Source: Gloeobacterales cyanobacterium (lineage in GTDB: Bacteria; Cyanobacteriota; Cyanobacteriia; Gloeobacterales; PMM-0068). Taken from it: a stretch of DNA of 64,000 bases. Numbering within the stretch: position 1 is the first letter of the stretch; each line of letters opens with the position of its first letter. This document shows positions 30,748 to 38,823 of the stretch, one piece after another. The DNA is taken from NCBI GenBank assembly GCA_038245785.1, contig JBBRSB010000007.1, positions 64,001-128,000 on the forward strand, in the 5' to 3' direction. The translations under genes and the position numbers were made by a program. The notes under the pieces were generated by a model. That model ran no database searches, was not told the DNA's origin, and worked only from the letters and a program-made list of their open reading frames with translations.

Positions 30748-32871
30748 ATGGCGTCTGAATTTTCTCCTCCGCGTAACAAATTTTTGAAGTCCTTCTTCAA
30801 CCCCAAATTTCTCTTCTTCGCCTTGCTCATCTTTGGGGTCGCCTCATGGATCGGGATTACCTGGGATCTGCCCAGTGCAGACCAGATCCGCAACTATGTC
30901 CCAAAATCCAGCGTCAAAATTCAGGCTGCGGATGGCTCAACTATTTATAACGGCGGGGCAGGACCAACCCGTAGAGTTTCCTATCAGGAAATCCCCAAAG
31001 ATCTGCGTGAGGCGATCGTCGCCACCGAAGACCGTCGCTTTTTTGAGCACAATGGAGTTGACTTCTTGGGAATTGGACGGGCACTGCTCCGAGATCTGCA
31101 ATCGGGAGGGCTAAAAGAAGGAGGGTCTACAATCACCCAGCAGCTAGCCCGGAATTTATTTTTGACTCAGGAGCGGACGCTCTGGCGCAAACTCAAAGAA
31201 GCAGCCATCGCTGCGCGCATTGAACAGGATTTTTCTAAAGAAGAAATTCTGACGCTCTATCTAAACCAGGTCTATCTGGGTTCAGGAGCCTATGGCGTTT
31301 CCGATGCTTCTCTCCTCTATTTCAATAAACCTGTTCAGCAATTGAAGCTCACGGAGTCTGCACTTCTAGCCGGTTTACCGCAAGCCCCCAGCCGTTACTC
31401 TCCGCTCATCAACAAGGAATTGGCCCGTAAACGGCGGGATATCGTGCTGAAAAACATGGTGGAAGCAGGATTTCTTAAACAAAGTGACTACCTCAAGGCC
31501 AAAGCCAGGCCCTTAACCATCAATCCCCGGCCGCAACTGCTTAAGAATCAGGCGGCCTATTTTACGTCCTATATCCAGTCCTTGTTGCCAGAAGTTTTGG
31601 GCACTACCGTTCAAGGAGGGCTAACCGTAGAAACCACCTTAGACCCTTTCATTCAAGCCCAAGCCCAGAGTGCCTTGACCCGAGCCTTAGCTCGCAATCA
31701 AGGGCGCAAAATAGAACAGGGAGCGATTGTTTCGATAGACCCCAACACCGGTGAAATCAGGGCTTTGGTCGGGGGGGAAGATTTTCAGAAAAGTCAATTT
31801 AACCGGGCGGTACAAGCCCTCCGCCAGCCAGGATCTGCGTTTAAGGTTTTTGTCTATACCCATGCCCTGGAGACAGGCATTGATCCTGGCACCGTCTATG
31901 TGGATGAACCCGTCCGCTTTGGCAATTATGAAGTCAAAAACTATGACCGGGATTATCAAGGCCCGATGACCTTAGTGAAGGCTTTGCAGGAATCTCGCAA
32001 TACCATTGCCGTCAAACTAATCGAACAAGTGGGAGAGCGGGAAACCATAGAAACGGCTCAACGGATGGGCATCAACAGTCCTTTACAAGCAAATCCAACC
32101 CTCGCCCTGGGATCTTCCGAGACCACGCTCCTAGAGTTAACCAGTGCCTACGGAACGCTGGCAAGTGGCGGTATCCGCACAGAACCAAGTGCTATTCGGC
32201 GCATCTTGGACCAATCGGGCCAAGTCCTCTACGAATCCAAACGCCAGCAGAACCAGGCTGTTACTCCAGAAGTAGCCTGGAGTATGACCAAGATGCTGGA
32301 ACAGGTAGTCAAGGGAGGAACAGGCAGAAGAGCTAACATTGGTAGACCTGTGGCTGGGAAAACAGGCACCAGCGAGAACAATCGGGACTTACTCTTCGTC
32401 GGCTATATTCCCCAGTTAGTCACCGGCGTCTGGCTAGGCAACGATGATAGTTCTCCCACCCGTGGGGCCAGCAGTATAGCAGCGGGCGTATGGGGAGAAA
32501 TGATGAATAAGGTAGCGAATAAACTGCCCGTCATCGCTTTTACAGAACCGAGTAACCTTTCTACTGACCTGCGTGACCGGGTATTGGCCGCAGCAGAAGG
32601 CCGACCCATCCCCTCCTACCTCCCGACCGACACAACAGGGGGCATTCCTCAGGACCAAGCGACAGAGCCGGCCCCTGCGCCTGTAGATCCCAACGTCGCC
32701 CCACCCCCTCAGGATTCAGTCCCTACAGACAATTCCCCTCATAACAGTGCGCCCTTAGATCCTTCTAATCCCCAATGTTTTGACCCTAATACTGCCTACA
32801 AAGGAGAGTCCGCCTGTGCGACGGGAGATGGCTTTGATGGCTATCGGGAGCAACGAAACCGAAAACGGTAG
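30748..32871 (+). CDS. class A penicillin-binding protein (PBP1A family)
   Basis: EDRRF.EH.G, GGSTITQQL, RKLKE, SAFK, SRN, KTGT. Confidence 0.95.
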   Translation: MASEFSPPRNKFLKSFFNPKFLFFALLIFGVASWIGITWDLPSADQIRNYVPKSSVKIQAADGSTIYNGGAGPTRRVSYQEIPKDLREAIVATEDRRFFEHNGVDFLGIGRALLRDLQSGGLKEGGSTITQQLARNLFLTQERTLWRKLKEAAIAARIEQDFSKEEILTLYLNQVYLGSGAYGVSDASLLYFNKPVQQLKLTESALLAGLPQAPSRYSPLINKELARKRRDIVLKNMVEAGFLKQSDYLKAKARPLTINPRPQLLKNQAAYFTSYIQSLLPEVLGTTVQGGLTVETTLDPFIQAQAQSALTRALARNQGRKIEQGAIVSIDPNTGEIRALVGGEDFQKSQFNRAVQALRQPGSAFKVFVYTHALETGIDPGTVYVDEPVRFGNYEVKNYDRDYQGPMTLVKALQESRNTIAVKLIEQVGERETIETAQRMGINSPLQANPTLALGSSETTLLELTSAYGTLASGGIRTEPSAIRRILDQSGQVLYESKRQQNQAVTPEVAWSMTKMLEQVVKGGTGRRANIGRPVAGKTGTSENNRDLLFVGYIPQLVTGVWLGNDDSSPTRGASSIAAGVWGEMMNKVANKLPVIAFTEPSNLSTDLRDRVLAAAEGRPIPSYLPTDTTGGIPQDQATEPAPAPVDPNVAPPPQDSVPTDNSPHNSAPLDPSNPQCFDPNTAYKGESACATGDGFDGYREQRNRKR

Positions 32872-33007
32872 TAAAAGCTTTCAAGTCCGAGGCTAATAAC
32901 CGAACAAACTGATCTAATTAAAGGGAATAGTAATGTTGGCACGCTCACAGACACTGACCATAAAGAATTTCCAGGAGTACATCAGATGAGTAAGCACTAT
33001 TAACTCT

Positions 33008-33856
33008 ATGGAAATGATCTTTGGGAGTGTAATCACCTCTGTCTTCTTTATATGCCTAGAAAAGCTTTTTCCTGCACAACAGCAAAGAACATTACGTGAG
33101 GGGTGGCATATTGATGTGGCCCACTTTGTTGTTAATTATTTTGCAGTCCAGCTTGGTGTGATTCTTGCTATCCTACCCGTATATTTATTATCATATTTCT
33201 TTAGCTGGGCTATCCCTCCTGGGGTACAAGCAGTCGTTACCAGTCAGCCCGGATGGCTGCAGTTTTTGGAAGCTTTCCTAATCGCTGAAATCAGCTCTTA
33301 CATTATCCATCGCTTAGTACATACTATCCCCTGGCTGTGGAAATTTCACTCAATTCATCACTGCAGCCCAGAGTTAGATTGGTTATCTGCCTTGCGATTC
33401 CATCCGATTGACTTGGTCCTAGAGAGGCTCTTTATTGTCGTTCCCCTATTTCTATTGGGTTTTAGCAAAGAGGTCCTTGAAGTATATGCACTGACTCGCA
33501 CCTTTCAGTCTTTGTTTATTCATACCAATATAAATTTTGATTTTCCTATACTACGCTGGCTGATTGCAACTCCTGAATCTCATCGCTGGCATCATGATGA
33601 AGCACCTGAGACACAGAATAAGAACTTTGGGCAACCCTTTATTGATTTCTTATTTGGCACACTCTACCTTCCTAAGGATAAGAAGCCTGCAATTTACGGT
33701 GTGAATGAACTTGTCCTAGATAGCTACAAAGAGCAGTTACTTTATCCGTTCCAGGTAAAGAAACAGAGACAGAATCAGATTAGCCTGATAGAAAGCGCAT
33801 CTCAGCAGAGTGAGCTTTTAGACTCTTCCATGTCCGAATCTCCTATTCAGAGATAA
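33008..33856 (+). CDS. sterol desaturase / fatty acid hydroxylase family protein
   Basis: His boxes HRLVH, HSIHH, HRWHH. Confidence 0.9.
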   Translation: MEMIFGSVITSVFFICLEKLFPAQQQRTLREGWHIDVAHFVVNYFAVQLGVILAILPVYLLSYFFSWAIPPGVQAVVTSQPGWLQFLEAFLIAEISSYIIHRLVHTIPWLWKFHSIHHCSPELDWLSALRFHPIDLVLERLFIVVPLFLLGFSKEVLEVYALTRTFQSLFIHTNINFDFPILRWLIATPESHRWHHDEAPETQNKNFGQPFIDFLFGTLYLPKDKKPAIYGVNELVLDSYKEQLLYPFQVKKQRQNQISLIESASQQSELLDSSMSESPIQR

Positions 33857-33906
33857 GTCAATTTAAAGAAGCTTTCCAGTAAGCGATTTGCCCTGGAGCT
33901 ATAGCC

Positions 33907-34326
33907 CTATCCTGGAAACGAGGAGAGAAAAGAGTAAACCGGGTGACTATACTCTTTAGCTTTCATCAAAATAAGAATCCGCCGAGTTTTTGTAGGATCA
34001 GTCAAGTTGACATTGTAAGACTGAAAATCAAGATCGTAATAATTGATTTTCCAACAATAATCAACATCATCCTGCACAACTTTGCCAAAGTCATGCGCAC
34101 CAACAGGATCATTCTCAGCAGTAAAGTCATCAAACTCCTGTACCTTGCTGATTAATTCACTGAGTTGCTCCTGAGGTAAATAACTTACTTCAGGAGTAAT
34201 CCGCCATGGATGACCACTTTCTGAAATCAGAGTAGTAAGCGTCTGTAACGTAATTTTCCAATGAGGATTTTTACGCAACTGGTCATTCAGTTGGGCAATA
34301 GCCTGTGTACTGGAAGTAACGTCCAT
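33907..34326 (-). CDS. DUF3768 family protein
   Basis: IAQLND.LR, FTAENDPVGAHDFG, WKINYYD, TRRIL...EY. Confidence 0.75.
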   Translation of the reverse strand: MDVTSSTQAIAQLNDQLRKNPHWKITLQTLTTLISESGHPWRITPEVSYLPQEQLSELISKVQEFDDFTAENDPVGAHDFGKVVQDDVDYCWKINYYDLDFQSYNVNLTDPTKTRRILILMKAKEYSHPVYSFLSSFPG

Positions 34327-34589
34327 AAATTGCTCCTTTTAACGCAGATTTGTGGAATCAGGCGAAAAGTGGCTTATACAAATCACACAGTATCGACAGA
34401 AAACAGAAAAAAGCGGCAGGGTTGAAAGGGTAACCAAAAGGGAATTCTCTATCTTCAAGATACTGCTCAAAAACCATGGAACACTACTGATTTTCAGAAC
34501 TTAACAGTGCGTGTTTAGGTAGATCGCAAAAGGCTCTGAGACCCTTCATCTCTTTATAAATAACGTTCAACCTTCAAAAATTGTCCATT

Positions 34590-35297
34590 TCAAAGTTTCG
34601 AAACAAGCTCAGCACGTCGTTCTTTCACAATTGTAGGAATATACCTATTTTTACTATCTTGATCTTCGAAACCAAGTCGCTGGTAAACATTACCACCTAT
34701 ACCGGGAAGAACTTCACCCTTAGCAGTGCGCTTTTCATCCTTAGCAAAGTAGAAAAATTGAAACTTATTATATACGGCTTTTTCGAATTCATTCTTTAGC
34801 TTTTGTTCTGCTTGAGCATGAATTACAGGCGCTACTATAAAGATTTTTTCAGGCTCAATACTTTGGATAAGATCGGAAAGATTTGTCTTGACGACACAAG
34901 CACCAGAAATAATAGACTTAACAATGATTAGATAATTCACATCTTCATTTGCTGGCTCTTGATATTTCCTAAGAATTGGTGCAACTTTTAAATCTTCCAT
35001 CTCAAAAGGAGAAAAGTGTTGATTCCAGAAACACGCAAAAGAAATTTTTCTAACCTTACCTTTTAAGGATTGAAGTATGCCTTTAGCTAAAAAATCAGCA
35101 TCTTCAACTGTGCATGCAAGATACACACTAGCCTGGTCACTACTAATCTGATCTAAAAGTGCATTACCTAAATTCAGTCCAATTTCAAACATAGCTTTCT
35201 TATACACTTCTGGCATCGCTTCTTTATTAACCAATGTGTCGAGTAAGTCGTGCACATTTTCGTACTGATAGAAGAGCTTTGAAAATTTCCTTTTCAT
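34590..35297 (-). CDS. uracil-phosphoribosyltransferase-fold protein with divergent active-site motifs
   Basis: Colinear with Upp: LIIVKSIISGA in place of LIVDPMLATG; C-terminal KDEKRTAKGEVLPGIGG resembles IDQGLNEHGYIIPGLGD. Confidence 0.7.
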   Translation of the reverse strand: MKRKFSKLFYQYENVHDLLDTLVNKEAMPEVYKKAMFEIGLNLGNALLDQISSDQASVYLACTVEDADFLAKGILQSLKGKVRKISFACFWNQHFSPFEMEDLKVAPILRKYQEPANEDVNYLIIVKSIISGACVVKTNLSDLIQSIEPEKIFIVAPVIHAQAEQKLKNEFEKAVYNKFQFFYFAKDEKRTAKGEVLPGIGGNVYQRLGFEDQDSKNRYIPTIVKERRAELVSKL

Positions 35298-36193
35298 ATT
35301 AAAAAACTCTCTAGTTCCTCAAAGGATTTGGGTCTGTCTCTTCTAACAAGTTTTTGGAAGTTTGCAAATTTCGCGGTATCACAGCTATACGGTAGTGTGC
35401 CCCTGCCGAGCCCGTTTTTAAATTCCCAATGCAGAAAGCCTTTCGAGAAGTTATAGGTGAAATCCTGAATACTGTCAAGGATCTCTTTGGTCTCAGCTCC
35501 TAAGTCAAAGGCTACATTAAGGGGAGGCCGTATGAATGAGGGGTTACAATCATGGGCTTTTGTCAACACTTCTAGAACAGAAGCATTAGACCTATCGCTT
35601 GAGCACCAAGCTCCAAGGAGTACTGTAGCAGCACACTCAATTTTATCTCTTTCAGGATTATCAGAACAACAGAGATACTCCACGGCTTTTTTGAATTCAG
35701 GTTCTTGATCAAGAACTTTCATTAGGCTGGAGTCATGACAAAAGTGAATTACCTGACTATATAGTTTAATATCTTCAGGCATCTCATCGGTTAATTTGTC
35801 TTTAAGATTTGGGGAAGATACTACTAAGCTAACTTCTGATTCTCTTTCCTTTGATTGATTTAGCTCATACTGTTTTTTAAAATCATCAGATATTGACTTT
35901 TCGCCCACATCCCAGCTCACACTTGATTTGTTTTTGAGTTGATAATGTTGGAGAGGGCTTTTTGTTTCTCGATTTATGATTAAGTCATCAACAAAAGCAA
36001 GAATTTGACTAGAGCAAATGATACTTTCCTGGCCCTCAATTACTTCCTTTGATAAACGAGCCAACTGATAAACAGTAAAGAAGTTTTCATAGGTATTACC
36101 CTTAGCATTGCTAGCTCCACCTCTATTCTTATTTTTCAAATATTGGAGAGTTTCATCACCAAAAAGCTTTTCGATATCTTTATCTTCGTACAT
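35294..36193 (-). CDS. putative PD-(D/E)xK dsDNA nuclease (Cap4/DUF4297-like N-terminal domain)
   Basis: RGGASNAKGNTYE...FVDDLII...HYQLKN. ATG at 36193 avoids overlap with argG; ATGA overlap with the downstream gene. Confidence 0.7.
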   Translation of the reverse strand: MYEDKDIEKLFGDETLQYLKNKNRGGASNAKGNTYENFFTVYQLARLSKEVIEGQESIICSSQILAFVDDLIINRETKSPLQHYQLKNKSSVSWDVGEKSISDDFKKQYELNQSKERESEVSLVVSSPNLKDKLTDEMPEDIKLYSQVIHFCHDSSLMKVLDQEPEFKKAVEYLCCSDNPERDKIECAATVLLGAWCSSDRSNASVLEVLTKAHDCNPSFIRPPLNVAFDLGAETKEILDSIQDFTYNFSKGFLHWEFKNGLGRGTLPYSCDTAKFANFQKLVRRDRPKSFEELESFLI

Positions 36194-36224
36194 ACAGACT
36201 GTGTTCGCGAGATTCCAAATTTGG

Positions 36225-37433
36225 TCACGGTTTGCGATGGACCTGGGACCAAACTCTGGTGGGCAAGCCCCAGACATAGATAAAGCCTTCTGCTGCCTTG
36301 TGGTCGAAGATATCGCTGGAAGTGTAGGTCGAAAGCTCTTCGCTGTAGAGTGAGAGGTCTGCTTTGCGTCCCACAACCGTGCAGGTTCCGCGATGGAGTC
36401 GGACTCTCGCTGTCCCAGTTACAACCTGTTGGGTTTCTCGTACAAACCCATCCAAGGCCATCTTAAGCGGGCTGTACCAAAGGCCGTTGTAGACCAACTG
36501 GGCATAGGTCGCTTCTATCTGCTGTTGCTTGTAGAAAGTGACTTCTTTGGGCAAGGTCAGCGCTTCCAGTTCTTGATGGGCACGAATCAAAACCAGCATC
36601 GCCGGGGATTCATAGATTTCGCGGGATTTGATACCGACCAAACGGTTCTCCAGCATGTCGATACGACCAACCCCGTTGTCTCCAGCCATCTGATTGAGAC
36701 GGTCTACCAGTTCAACAGGGCTTATTTTTTCTCCATCCAGCGTTACTGGAATTCCTTGAGCAAACTGGATTTCAACATAGGTAGGTTCCGCCGGACAGTC
36801 ATTCACTGACTTGGTCATGGCATAGACTTCTTCAGGAGGCTCGGCCCAAGGGTCTTCGAGAATGCCGCATTCAACCGAACGACCCAGAATATTCTGGTCG
36901 ATGGAGTAGGCAGACTTTTTCTTTACGGGTGAGGGAATGCCGTACTTTTCACCGTATTCAATCGTCTCTTGCCGCGAAAAACCCCATTCCCGTGCGGGAG
37001 CAAGCACTTTTAAGGTTGGGTCCAGTGCCGCAATCGACACATCAAAACGCACTTGGTCATTGCCTTTGCCCGTACAACCATGTGCCACCGCATCACAGCC
37101 TGTCCTGTGGGCAATATCCACTAAGATTTTGGCAATCAAAGGACGAGCCAGTGCCGTTGCCAAAGGATAACGGCCTTCGTAGAGCGCATTACTCTGCAGT
37201 GCCGGGAAAGCATACTGTTCGATAAATTCTTGGCGCACATCTTCGACGTAGGCTTCAGCAGCTCCTGATTTCAAGGCTTTCTGTCGGACAGCTTCCAGGT
37301 CCTCGCCTTGTCCCAAATCCGCTGAGAGCGCAACCACGGCTTCACAGCCCCATTCGTTCATTAAGTATGGAATGCAAACAGAAGTGTCCACTCCACCGGA
37401 GTATGCAAGAACGACTTTTTTAGCCCGCCCCAT
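36225..37433 (-). CDS. argG: argininosuccinate synthase
   Basis: [32 protein letters not shown]. Confidence 0.98.
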
Positions 37434-37490: not shown

Positions 37491-37742
37491 GTGGCTTCAC
37501 GATCCCTAAAGCTAGGAGAACTCCATTCAATAAAGGCTTTAGAAGATCTGTGCAACCTTCCGCAAGTACGATGCCATGAACCAGTAGGTGACCGCTCAGG
37601 TCAGCTTTCAGTAGATTTGGATCATCCTTATCGTCTTATCTTCGAGCCTACTGAACCAATTCCAAGAAAGACAGATGGTGGGCTCGACTGGGAAAAAATA
37701 AACTCCATTATGATTCTTGGAATAGAGGATACCCATGAGTAA
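37491..37742 (+). pseudogene. higB: HigB-like (killer-suppression/RelE family) toxin, probably 5'-truncated
   Basis: RCHE..GDRSGQLSVDLDHPYRLIFEP...DGGLDW...IEDTHE is the C-terminal part of the family; the usual N-terminal strand and helix are missing. Confidence 0.7.
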
Positions 37743-38823
37743 TACTATTCAAAACCAGTACACACCGAATTACGTTGCACATCCAGGAGAAACACTTTTA
37801 GAAACTCTTGAAGCTCTTGGGATGTCTCAGGCAGATTTAGCAGATCGAACAGGTAGGCCCAAGAAAACCATTAATGAAATCATTCACGGAAAGTCAGCAA
37901 TCACTCCAGAGACCGCACTGCAGTTAGAGCGGGCTTTACGTGTGCCAGCCAGTTTTTGGAACAATCTCGAACGAAATTATCGAGAATTTCTAGCCAAACA
38001 GGAGGAGCAAAAGAAACTACAGGATCAAGTTGAATGGCTCAAGAAAATCCCTGTTAACGATATGAGTAAGCGAGGATGGATTCAGCTTTACAAAGACAAA
38101 ATCCAACAACTTCGGGAAGTCCTCACCTTTTTCGGAGTTGTCTCTCCTGAACGATGGAAAGAAGTATGGGGAAACATGCCCGTAGCCTTTCGGAGATCTT
38201 CTGCTTTTGAGAGCAGCCCTGGTGCGATTACAGCCTGGCTCCGCAGAGGAGAAATTGAAGCTCAAAATATTTACTGTGCATCCTATGACGCTGGGAAGTT
38301 TAGGAAAGTACTACAACAAATCCGTTCTTTAACTACTGAATCTCTAGAATTTTTTCAACCGGAAGTAGTGCGTTTATGTTCTAAAGTAGGCGTGGCTGTA
38401 GTATTTGTACCAGAGCTTCCCAAGACACATGTTTGTGGCGCAACACGTTGGTTAAAGTCTGATAAAGCGCTCATTCAACTTAGTCTCCGCCACAAGACTG
38501 ATGACCACTTGTGGTTCGCCTTTTTTCACGAAGCAGGTCATGTTCTTTTGCATGGAAAGCATGATGTTTTCCTTGAGACCGACAATAACGATGATCCCAA
38601 AGAGCAAGAGGCAAATGACTTTGCTGCGAACTTTCTAATCCCTGAGGCGGAATTACGAAAGTTCACTAGGTCAAATCATCAATACACCAAAGTGGCTATC
38701 CAGAAATTTGCGGCCGATATTGGAATTGCACCTGGAATTATTGTAGGGAGGCTTCAGCATGCCAAGCTTCTACCACAAACCCATTGCAACGACCTGAAAC
38801 GTCGATTTACTTGGGCAGTATAG
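37735..38823 (+). CDS. higA: HigA antitoxin (HTH) fused to an ImmA/IrrE-type metallopeptidase domain
   Basis: HPGETL...MSQADLA...INEIIHGKSAITPETALQLE...FWNNL; FFHEAGH (HExxH), E.EANDFA. Confidence 0.92.
   Translation: MSNTIQNQYTPNYVAHPGETLLETLEALGMSQADLADRTGRPKKTINEIIHGKSAITPETALQLERALRVPASFWNNLERNYREFLAKQEEQKKLQDQVEWLKKIPVNDMSKRGWIQLYKDKIQQLREVLTFFGVVSPERWKEVWGNMPVAFRRSSAFESSPGAITAWLRRGEIEAQNIYCASYDAGKFRKVLQQIRSLTTESLEFFQPEVVRLCSKVGVAVVFVPELPKTHVCGATRWLKSDKALIQLSLRHKTDDHLWFAFFHEAGHVLLHGKHDVFLETDNNDDPKEQEANDFAANFLIPEAELRKFTRSNHQYTKVAIQKFAADIGIAPGIIVGRLQHAKLLPQTHCNDLKRRFTWAV

Follow-up and report, generated by a model that had tools for sequence, protein, structure and literature searches.

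Two short overlapping genes that directly follow argG in a Gloeobacterales cyanobacterium raise a simple question: do they form an anti-phage system, and if they do, what part does a protein built like a nucleotide-salvage enzyme play in it? The genes lie in a stretch of 64,000 nucleotides (nt), called here the window (positions 64,001 to 128,000 of the forward strand of contig JBBRSB010000007.1, assembly GCA_038245785.1). A preliminary description, made from the sequence alone, had presented them as a candidate new system in which a Cap4-like nuclease (gene 1) is coupled to a rewired protein of the uracil phosphoribosyltransferase (UPRTase) fold (gene 2). This interpretation, taken as a whole, is partly supported by the analysis reported here. 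In our assessment the pair is probably a self-contained conflict module, most likely directed against phages and resembling a toxin-antitoxin system, with gene 1 as the effector and gene 2 as its restraining and probably sensing partner.

The two proteins of the pair

The genes had been described as coupled by an ATGA overlap and placed 31 bp after the stop codon of argG, and the sequence confirms both the coordinates and the spacer. The features of the pair, in positions of the window, are the following (PRTase, phosphoribosyltransferase; PRPP, phosphoribosyl pyrophosphate; aa, amino acids).

35294..36193, minus strand: gene 1, 299 aa, predicted Cap4/HamA/LmuA-type PD-(D/E)xK nuclease with a C-terminal docking domain
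35519..36121, minus strand: predicted nuclease core of gene 1, residues ~25-225, the range aligned to Cap4, HamA, Avs3 and LmuA (model residues 25/34 to 220/252)
35297..35653, minus strand: C-terminal region of gene 1, residues 181-299, carrying the predicted interface with gene 2
35294..35297, minus strand: stop/start overlap of gene 1 and gene 2, the 4-nt ATGA, read directly from the sequence
34590..35297, minus strand: gene 2, 235 aa, UPRTase-fold protein with replaced active-site residues
34953..35027, minus strand: gene 2 residues 91-115, a conserved loop at the position of the PRTase flexible loop/arm, predicted nuclease docking site
34881..34934, minus strand: gene 2 residues 122-139, the remodelled PRPP-motif loop, with K127-S128 in place of the UPRTase D/E-P
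34668..34706, minus strand: gene 2 residues 198-210, PGIGG..Y.RLGF, counterpart of the uracil-binding PGLGDAGDR loop of UPRTase

A longer open reading frame (ORF) for gene 1, starting from a TTG at 36376 and overlapping argG, was considered. It is unsupported because the homologues share the M-Y start of the 299-aa form, and M1 and Y2 are nearly invariant in an alignment of 58 sequences.

Gene 1 had been put forward as a PD-(D/E)xK effector nuclease of the Cap4/LmuA kind. This is borne out by fold matches at Z scores of 9.4 to 11.0 and by the conservation of the motif residues in 58 homologues. Its predicted structure, modelled from the alignment of these homologues, has a predicted local distance difference test score (pLDDT) of 92. 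The fold search with VIA, which is independent of Foldseek and covers 48,161 representative chains, returned Cap4 (6vm6_A, Z 11.0, root-mean-square deviation (rmsd) 3.8, 170 residues aligned), HamA (8zue_A, Z 10.0), the Avs3 nuclease (8dgc_A, Z 9.8) and LmuA (9ux8_C, Z 9.4; 9hqx_A, Z 7.3), followed by restriction enzymes at a Z of about 6. The leaders in Foldseek were HamA 8zue_A (E 6.3e-4), LmuA 9hr5_A (E 7.4e-4) and Cap4 (6wam and 6vm6). By sequence, gene 1 has no match in Pfam (E ≤ 1), NCBIfam, PHROGs or, with phmmer, the PDB (E up to 10), and it does not match the Pfam family model PF14130 of Cap4/DUF4297-type nucleases. The Pfam scan of both proteins gave a single match, to Mmc1_C, at chance level. 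The only sequence signal is a weak match to the PADLOC model of LmuA (DUF4297; E 0.0035, residues 22-105). A distant homologue in Bacteriovorax (L087) reaches 23.1 bits on Pfam Cap4_nuclease, below the cut-off of 26.2.

G25, G32, Y35, E36, F67, H83, Q85, L86 and K87 do not vary among the 58 aligned homologues, in which D69 and D70 reach at least 90% conservation. In the model E36, D69, D70, Q85 and K87 fall where the alpha-beta-beta-beta core would have them, on helix 34-54 and at or immediately ahead of strands 71-75 and 81-87. From the usual PD-(D/E)xK layout, we take E36, D69/D70, Q85 and K87 to have the catalytic roles. Gene 1 is thus predicted to be a Cap4/HamA/LmuA-class DNA endonuclease that keeps its full catalytic set, with a C-terminal domain that stays clear of the active site, and the fold assignment holds. 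A protein-atlas cluster close to gene 1 (score 0.94), in which 40% of the members carry Pfam PF20276 CTD1, offers a lead only.

Gene 2 had been said to align with UPRTase from end to end. Its structure and a weak collinear profile match agree with this; sequence searches do not, since they find no UPRTase match in Pfam (including PF14681), NCBIfam or, with phmmer, the PDB (E up to 10), and PHROGs was of no help either. The one PADLOC match, to PRTase_III-A, is weak (E 1.8e-4, 19 bits) and covers residues 101-189 only. The predicted structure has a pLDDT of 84.6, with residues 91-115 low in the monomer (blocks of 58 and 59). Over residues 6-212 it matches 14 UPRTase entries at Z 16.0-20.4 (rmsd 2.4-3.2, 178-194 residues aligned), compared with a Z of at most 12.1 for other PRTases and about 10 for PyrR chains. 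Foldseek is also led by UPRTases (3g6w_C, E 1.3e-10). We then used a reference alignment of 22 true UPRTases from the cyanobacterial phylum for profile comparison. With hhalign, the gene 2 family is collinear with these over 170 columns, albeit weakly (E 3.6e-4, probability 37%), while against the single upp of the same genome only the N-terminal helices are aligned (probability 3%).

The pocket of gene 2 has been remodelled. In the 22 UPRTases the PRPP motif (D/E-P-M-L-A-T-G-G) and the uracil loop (P-G-L-G-D-A-G-D-R) are invariant or nearly so, and neither is kept in gene 2. The profile alignment pairs K127 of gene 2 with D/E138, the acidic residue of the PRPP motif, S128 with P139, which is invariant in UPRTases, and S131 and G132 with T143 and G144. 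In the C-terminal loop, G194, P198, G199 and G201 correspond to UPRTase G201, P205, G206 and G208 and are conserved in both families; G202 is paired with D209, and an ungapped extension of the alignment by hand puts Y205 opposite D212. Both D209 and D212 are invariant in the 22 real UPRTases. The residues of gene 2 are no less constrained: T63, E65, A67, D68, S128, I130, P198, G199, G201, G202, Y205 and R207 are invariant among 67 homologues, and K127, S131, G132 and A133 are at least 90% conserved. The earlier claim that the functional residues have changed stands for the PRPP motif and the PGLGD loop. Outside the pocket, the loop 91-115 is enlarged relative to UPRTase and conserved at W91, N92, F95, S96, P97, F98, A106, P107, I108, K111, Y112, Q113, E114 and P115, and residues 213-235 form an extra C-terminal helix.

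Because the residues that bind PRPP and uracil have been exchanged for another strictly conserved set, gene 2 would not be expected to make uridine monophosphate (UMP). And because the substitutes are invariant in 67 members, the pocket seems to be selected for something other than PRPP chemistry. The residues count against an ancestral mode of binding for PRPP or uracil, since the acid of the PRPP motif and the aspartates of the uracil loop are missing; ligands of the uracil, UMP or PRPP type are speculation. The genome has its own upp on contig C54, found with 219 bits in a genome-wide PF14681 search that gave two weak matches elsewhere and did not have gene 2 among its matches; upp is also present in all 31 genomes sampled from the phylum. 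In a protein-atlas look-up from gene 2, clusters of real UPRTases appear only at scores of 0.83-0.84. The gene 2 family profile retrieves 338 proteins at E ≤ 0.001 and 241 at E ≤ 1e-10 among 1.84 billion representatives, counts that may include UPRTases. Gene 2 is a UPRTase-derived protein and is not an ordinary UPRTase: the genome carries a separate upp, and the invariant residues of UPRTase are replaced.

Linkage, loss and predicted contact of the two genes

If the two proteins work together, their genes should travel together. We examined 91 loci, 11 from a sample of the phylum (the window included) and 80 from a genome collection, with some genomes present in both sets. A match to gene 1 lies beside gene 2 in 77 of the 91, which agrees with the co-occurrence implied by the preliminary description. 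The 4-nt overlap is kept in 55 of the 91 loci, the genes are adjacent at another spacing in 17, and in five the spacing reflects the choice of ORF start or a gap of 159 nt; 14 loci have no gene 1 ORF. Across the phylum, gene 2 occurs in 11 of 401 genomes (10 of 156 genera). Gene 1 occurs in nine of the 401, all of them among the 11 with gene 2; in seven it is full length and adjacent to gene 2, and in two it is a C-terminal remnant. It was found in none of the 390 phylum genomes that are without gene 2. The pair is conserved as a unit and is sporadic.

Homologues of both genes are numerous in cyanobacteria (48-85% identity), with consecutive locus tags where these are named. Outside cyanobacteria, at 38-52% identity, they occur in Gamma- and Betaproteobacteria, a Bacteroidota metagenome-assembled genome (MAG), Nannocystis (Myxococcota), Bacteriovorax (Bdellovibrionota) and others. 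In a quick maximum-likelihood tree, rooted at the midpoint only, the cyanobacterial copies form one supported group (49 rows, Shimodaira-Hasegawa-like approximate likelihood ratio test 96) nested among proteobacterial ones. The pair is thus spread over cyanobacteria, where few defence systems have been tested, and over several proteobacterial orders. Some near-identical copies of gene 2 come from MAGs of distant taxa: Beijerinckiaceae with Microcystis (L055/L056), Bifidobacteriaceae with Inhella/Ideonella (L074 versus L072/L073) and Paceibacterota with Paraburkholderia (L081 versus L082). These look like binning contamination rather than recent transfer.

Loss affects the two genes unequally. 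In four of the 14 loci without a gene 1 ORF (L004, L005, L016 and L051), a tblastn search shows the final 40-78 codons of gene 1 still directly next to gene 2; at L004:2190-3564 an insertion sequence with a DDE transposase interrupts gene 1. In another locus gene 1 is in two pieces (L026:9571-10004), and several Coleofasciculus loci have a shortened gene 1. A gene 1 that does harm without its partner would be expected to give this picture of loss of gene 1 with persistence of gene 2, seen here in small numbers and with most loci recruited through gene 2.

No fusion of gene 1 to gene 2 was found among 392 stored proteins. Longer forms of gene 2 exist, with an M78 peptidase, DUF2188 or receiver domain or with a frame that extends into a helicase, and these may be artefacts of gene calling or read-through. 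In one of them (L043:10001-15763) the gene 2 frame continues without a stop into a DruE-like helicase, giving an ORF of 1,920 aa; a genuine fusion, loss of the stop codon or an error of MAG assembly could each explain it. In a Sericytochromatia MAG, a protein of 318 aa takes the place of gene 1 directly upstream of gene 2 (L071:8992-9948, the same gene in L011). It has no match in Pfam or PADLOC. As an alternative effector sharing the C-terminal domain of gene 1 it was rejected, with an hhalign probability of 0.1%.

Do the two proteins touch? The preliminary description had proposed a model of the complex as a check, and three runs with gene 1 and gene 2 gave values of 0.90, 0.90 and 0.89 for ipSAE, the interface score, compared with 0.01 for the best of three controls. 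In calibration, the mark for this score is reached by 116 of 157 solved complexes and by two of 215 mismatched pairs, counts that hold only roughly because the alignments supplied were our own. The runs have at least 96% of contacts in common, with a partner pLDDT of at least 91. Recall of a solved complex is unlikely because a sequence search of the PDB gave no relative for gene 1 or for gene 2. On the side of gene 1, the modelled interface is confined to the C-terminal part (residues 156, 181-184, 186-187, 190-191, 193-195, 197-198, 216, 218, 220, 244, 259, 261-266, 268, 292, 295-296 and 298-299) and includes the invariant D183, K184, L193 and G265. On the side of gene 2 it comprises residues 91, 93, 95, 97-98, 100, 103-115, 138-145, 169-170 and 214-235, and so takes in the flexible-loop counterpart 91-115 and the extra C-terminal helix. 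The modelled interface leaves out the catalytic residues of the nuclease and the greater part of gene 2's remodelled pocket. The model supports binding of gene 1 to gene 2, without demonstrating it.

These elements suggest a mechanism in three steps. In the uninfected cell, gene 2 would hold the nuclease inactive by sequestering the C-terminal domain of gene 1, in parallel to Lamassu. Some change in gene 2 at its remodelled pocket, which could come from a nucleotide-like ligand or a phage factor, would shift the loop. The nuclease would then be freed or activated, cut DNA and abort the infection. A more specific version takes the pseudo-UPRTase as a receptor for a pyrimidine nucleotide or nucleobase, or for an unusual nucleotide made during infection, with the loop that closes over the substrate in the enzyme now releasing or switching on the nuclease. 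We put this version forward tentatively and consider it doubtful. If true, it would define a new class of immune sensor that links the state of the nucleotide pool to the destruction of DNA without a cyclase, a structural maintenance of chromosomes (SMC) protein or a helicase.

Genomic context and competing explanations

Does the pair keep the company of defence systems? We surveyed the ORFs in the 80 collection loci, clustered the neighbours and scanned 321 representatives with PADLOC. Clustered neighbours were followed to four genes on each side and singletons to three, and members were counted through their cluster representative. The stronger evidence from this survey is qualitative: the pair is repeatedly inserted in multi-gene defence loci of different kinds. 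A set of three genes flanks it in six loci (L013, L017, L042, L043, L044 and L047) and does so partly in six others (L015, L028, L032, L034, L045 and L050). Its members are a DpdE/DrmD-like SNF2 helicase (E 1.6e-209), a DrmMI-like N6 methylase (E 5.5e-87) and a DruE-like helicase with MZB/DUF1998 (E 5.7e-95), and the pair usually sits between the methylase and the large (~1,700-1,800 aa) DruE-like helicase. The pair also occurs between HmaC and HmaB (L059:2034-14103) and, in the opposite orientation, between HmaA and HmaB (L022:920-11588).

Other defence genes lie directly beside the pair: type III restriction-modification (RM) systems (L063, L064), Dsr2 (L062), PDC-M01A/B (L077), HEC-02A (L023, L029) and PDC-S69 (L065). 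Within three genes there are type IIG enzymes (L073, L080) and PifA with a GajB-like helicase (L082). A complete Gabija system, GajA/GajB, is found directly upstream in one of the loci that have gene 2 without gene 1 (L071). A tyrosine integrase family is present within four genes in seven loci.

The composite DpdE/DrmMI/DruE-like island of cyanobacteria does not correspond to any one canonical system (DISARM, Druantia or Dpd). In the window's genome the genes of this island are found on two other contigs (C39:4978-11735 and C36:2415-7466) without the pair, so that here the pair is an autonomous module. Both Hma (helicase-methylase-ATPase) and the DISARM-like island are without an obvious nuclease. 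The presence of the pair inside such methylase-helicase systems raises the question of whether it supplies them with one.

The surroundings of the pair in the window itself consist of the following features.

36225..37433, minus strand: argG, the ORF upstream of gene 1
36194..36224, minus strand: spacer of 31 nt between the argG stop and the gene 1 ATG
33907-34326: DUF3768 gene, GC (G+C content) 0.400, within a low-GC stretch
33008-33856: fatty-acid hydroxylase gene, GC 0.418, within the low-GC stretch
37491-38823, plus strand: an 83-aa ORF and a gene with HTH_3 and Peptidase_M78 (ImmA/IrrE-type) domains, on the far side of argG; the latter, the HTH/M78 gene, matches PADLOC PD-Lambda-2_B (E 4.3e-37)

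The pair had been noted as visibly richer in AT than argG, and its GC is indeed 0.368, while argG has 0.518 and the window as a whole 0.479. A GC as low is found in just 0.08% of segments of 1604 bp, and the pair is the most AT-rich stretch of the window. The low-GC stretch is broader than the pair (32750-36220) and includes a 263-nt spacer with a GC of 0.384. A search of the window for tRNA genes found none. A gene with HTH and M78 domains similar to that of the window is located two genes upstream of the pair in another locus (L033, 6561-7664), and at L010:496-2199 (minus strand) and in representative P0245 (564 aa) the frame of gene 2 itself extends into an M78 peptidase domain at the C-terminus. 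The vicinity of the HTH/M78 gene may be a recurrent link or a coincidence.

Several results weigh against the reading of the pair as a restrained anti-phage effector. The preliminary description had expected a neighbourhood of defence genes, and the pair does lie in or beside known defence loci in many genomes; enrichment appears only under a criterion chosen after seeing the data. As a control we gave identical treatment to 19 arbitrary 20-kb regions (L135-L153) from five complete genomes of the same class, with 112 proteins. Counting raw PADLOC matches (E ≤ 1e-8), 37 of the 80 test loci and 13 of the 19 control loci are positive (Fisher p 0.98). The control matches come from kinases (PD-T4-6), histidine-kinase-like mad3, TnpB (Cas12f), PDC-S03 and TPR/HEAT families. 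Since 13 of 19 arbitrary neighbourhoods match, matches to single hidden Markov models are a poor measure of defence islands in this phylum. The post hoc criterion (E ≤ 1e-50, 70% or more of the profile covered by the best stretch, with Cas12/TnpB, Tns, PD-T4-6 kinase, mad and TPR/HEAT excluded) gives 23 of 80 against 0 of 19 (p 0.004); with the excluded families counted, the figures are 24 of 80 and three of 19 (p 0.17). Related loci are moreover not independent in these statistics, and the statistical case for a defence neighbourhood is weak. In the window, the neighbours of the pair are ordinary or uncharacterised (argG, the DUF3768 protein and the fatty-acid hydroxylase), and the only PADLOC match near the pair is the HTH/M78 gene beyond argG. 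Other such results concern the proteins. The fold matches of gene 1 span residues 25-225, and the last 75 residues are barely covered by the fold searches. For gene 2, the proposed change of ILRAG to TVEDA is tentative: a mapping of the LRAG arginine to E65/D66 fits the register of strand, loop and helix, and hhalign places the segment differently, itself at low confidence. Finally, gene 2 does not lie over the active site of the nuclease in the model of the complex. Inhibition by gene 2 is therefore inferred and not seen, and the modelled complex could equally be the active form.

This last point leads to the alternative that the pair is a constitutive two-subunit enzyme of the restriction type. 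Gene 2 would then be a specificity module for a base or nucleotide, for example a modified phage pyrimidine, and would direct the nuclease with no release step. The free active site and the position of the remodelled pocket outside the modelled interface suit this explanation, as does the frequent location of the pair in methylation-based loci (Hma, the DISARM-like island, type III and IIG RM). PyrR is among the fold matches, and some proteins of the PRTase fold do work on or with nucleic acid, among them the ComFC-like proteins discussed in connection with DNA uptake (PMC5512222). Yet no DNA-binding feature was identified in gene 2, and the absence of gene 1 wherever gene 2 is missing, together with its decay where gene 2 survives, fits a restrained toxic effector better. 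We consider this explanation unlikely.

The same asymmetric decay would also be produced by an addiction cassette that stabilises genomic islands and mobile elements, with the nuclease as toxin, the pseudo-UPRTase as antitoxin and no role against phages. The overlapping two-gene layout, the predicted tight complex, the orphan copies of gene 2 and decayed copies of gene 1, the integrases and transposases near the pair in several loci and its low GC relative to the host all accord with it. It accounts less well for the repeated presence of the pair inside or beside bona fide defence systems and for its class of effector: to our knowledge, nucleases of the Cap4/LmuA/HamA/Avs3 class have so far come from defence systems. 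Addiction and defence are, in any case, not exclusive roles. As an explanation that does away with defence, we regard it as unlikely too.

It is very unlikely, in our view, that gene 2 has kept an enzymatic role through a new chemistry, either making or destroying a nucleotide-like signal that switches on the nuclease or acting as a metabolic toxin like the ShosT PRTase. The motifs lining its pocket are as strictly conserved as in an enzyme, and there is the weak PADLOC match to the PRTase of type III-A retrons. Catalytic PRTases are known in defence, as described for ShosT (PMC11961720) and OpnC (bioRxiv 10.1101/2025.09.30.679545). Against this stand the replacement of the PRPP-motif acid by lysine and of D209 by glycine and the position of Y205 opposite D212, as well as a structure that resembles UPRTases (Z up to 20) much more than it does other PRTases. 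Defence PRTases are reported to cluster in one clade of classical PRTases (bioRxiv 10.1101/2025.09.30.679545).

A housekeeping pair for nucleotide salvage or DNA repair that is co-transcribed with argG is hardly credible: the gap after argG is only 31 nt and a promoter and terminator scan of the minus strand called no promoter-like or terminator-like site in it, but the pair is present in 11 of 401 phylum genomes as opposed to upp in 31 of 31, its GC is much lower than the host's, the other examined loci have varying neighbours with argG not among them, and the genome has its own upp.

Comparison with known systems

The restrained-effector reading can be placed most directly beside Lamassu. 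LmuA and gene 1 have the nuclease fold in common, and both combine an N-terminal nuclease with a C-terminal domain bound by a partner, which for gene 1 is a prediction. In Lamassu, LmuB and LmuC are reported to hold back the oligomerisation domain of LmuA before activation; once freed, LmuA forms the active tetramer (bioRxiv 10.1101/2025.03.14.643221). The partners differ, an SMC-like LmuB with LmuC in Lamassu and a 235-aa UPRTase-fold protein in the pair. No match to LmuB was found among the PADLOC-scanned neighbours (within three to four genes) of the 80 loci or in the window.

The best structural matches of the nuclease core of gene 1 are Cap4 of the cyclic-oligonucleotide-based anti-phage signalling system (CBASS) and HamA of Hachiman. 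Gene 1 is far shorter, at 299 aa compared with 420-530 aa for the matched Cap4 and HamA chains. CBASS adds a SAVED domain and a cGAS/DncV-like nucleotidyltransferase (CD-NTase), whereas gene 1 has no Pfam domain and its match to Cap4 covers the nuclease part only (chain residues 14-291). Neither a CD-NTase cyclase nor HamB, the helicase of Hachiman, was found among the PADLOC-scanned neighbours of the 80 loci or of the window; the conserved partner of gene 1 is gene 2.

For gene 2 the closest relative in structure is Upp (PF14681, EC 2.4.2.9), with which it has in common the fold and the G..PG.G backbone of the C-terminal loop. It departs from Upp in failing the family model and in lacking the PRPP-motif acid and the uracil-loop aspartates. 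A precedent for the PRTase fold as a regulator is PyrR, which matches the gene 2 model at a Z of about 10. PyrR senses nucleotides, binds RNA and keeps the PRTase residues, and neither a nuclease nor defence is linked to it.

The fold class of gene 2 also has several members in anti-phage systems. From published descriptions, these are the PRTase-like proteins of type III retrons (PMC7736814), the catalytic ShosT (PMC11961720; also PMC12961424), PsyrT and the catalytic OpnC of Ophion (bioRxiv 10.1101/2025.09.30.679545) and DS-32A, where a PRTase is found with NADAR (bioRxiv 10.1101/2025.01.08.631726). As far as these sources go, the known defence PRTases are effectors or toxins and are catalytic where studied, whereas gene 2 is without the classical catalytic residues. 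Their partners, within the same limits, are a reverse transcriptase (RT) with non-coding RNA, a DprA-like antitoxin, a radical S-adenosylmethionine protein with a PHP protein, or NADAR, whereas the partner of gene 2 is a nuclease. The neighbouring ORFs of the window include neither an RT nor a DprA-like protein.

A match to an already named system would have changed this picture. PADLOC-DB v2 gives none for the pair beyond the two weak domain matches, and text searches of the literature found no pairing of a nuclease with a UPRTase-like protein, the supplementary tables of discovery papers lying outside these searches, so that an unnamed listing is possible. If the pair does protect against phages, it would be a compact system of two genes in which a familiar nuclease is placed under a new controller, a catalytically disabled salvage enzyme, and it would provide a tractable case of the fold of a metabolic enzyme becoming an immune sensor or restraint. 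Set beside Lamassu, CBASS, Hachiman and the defence PRTases, the pair looks like an undescribed module that joins a known class of effector to a new kind of partner.

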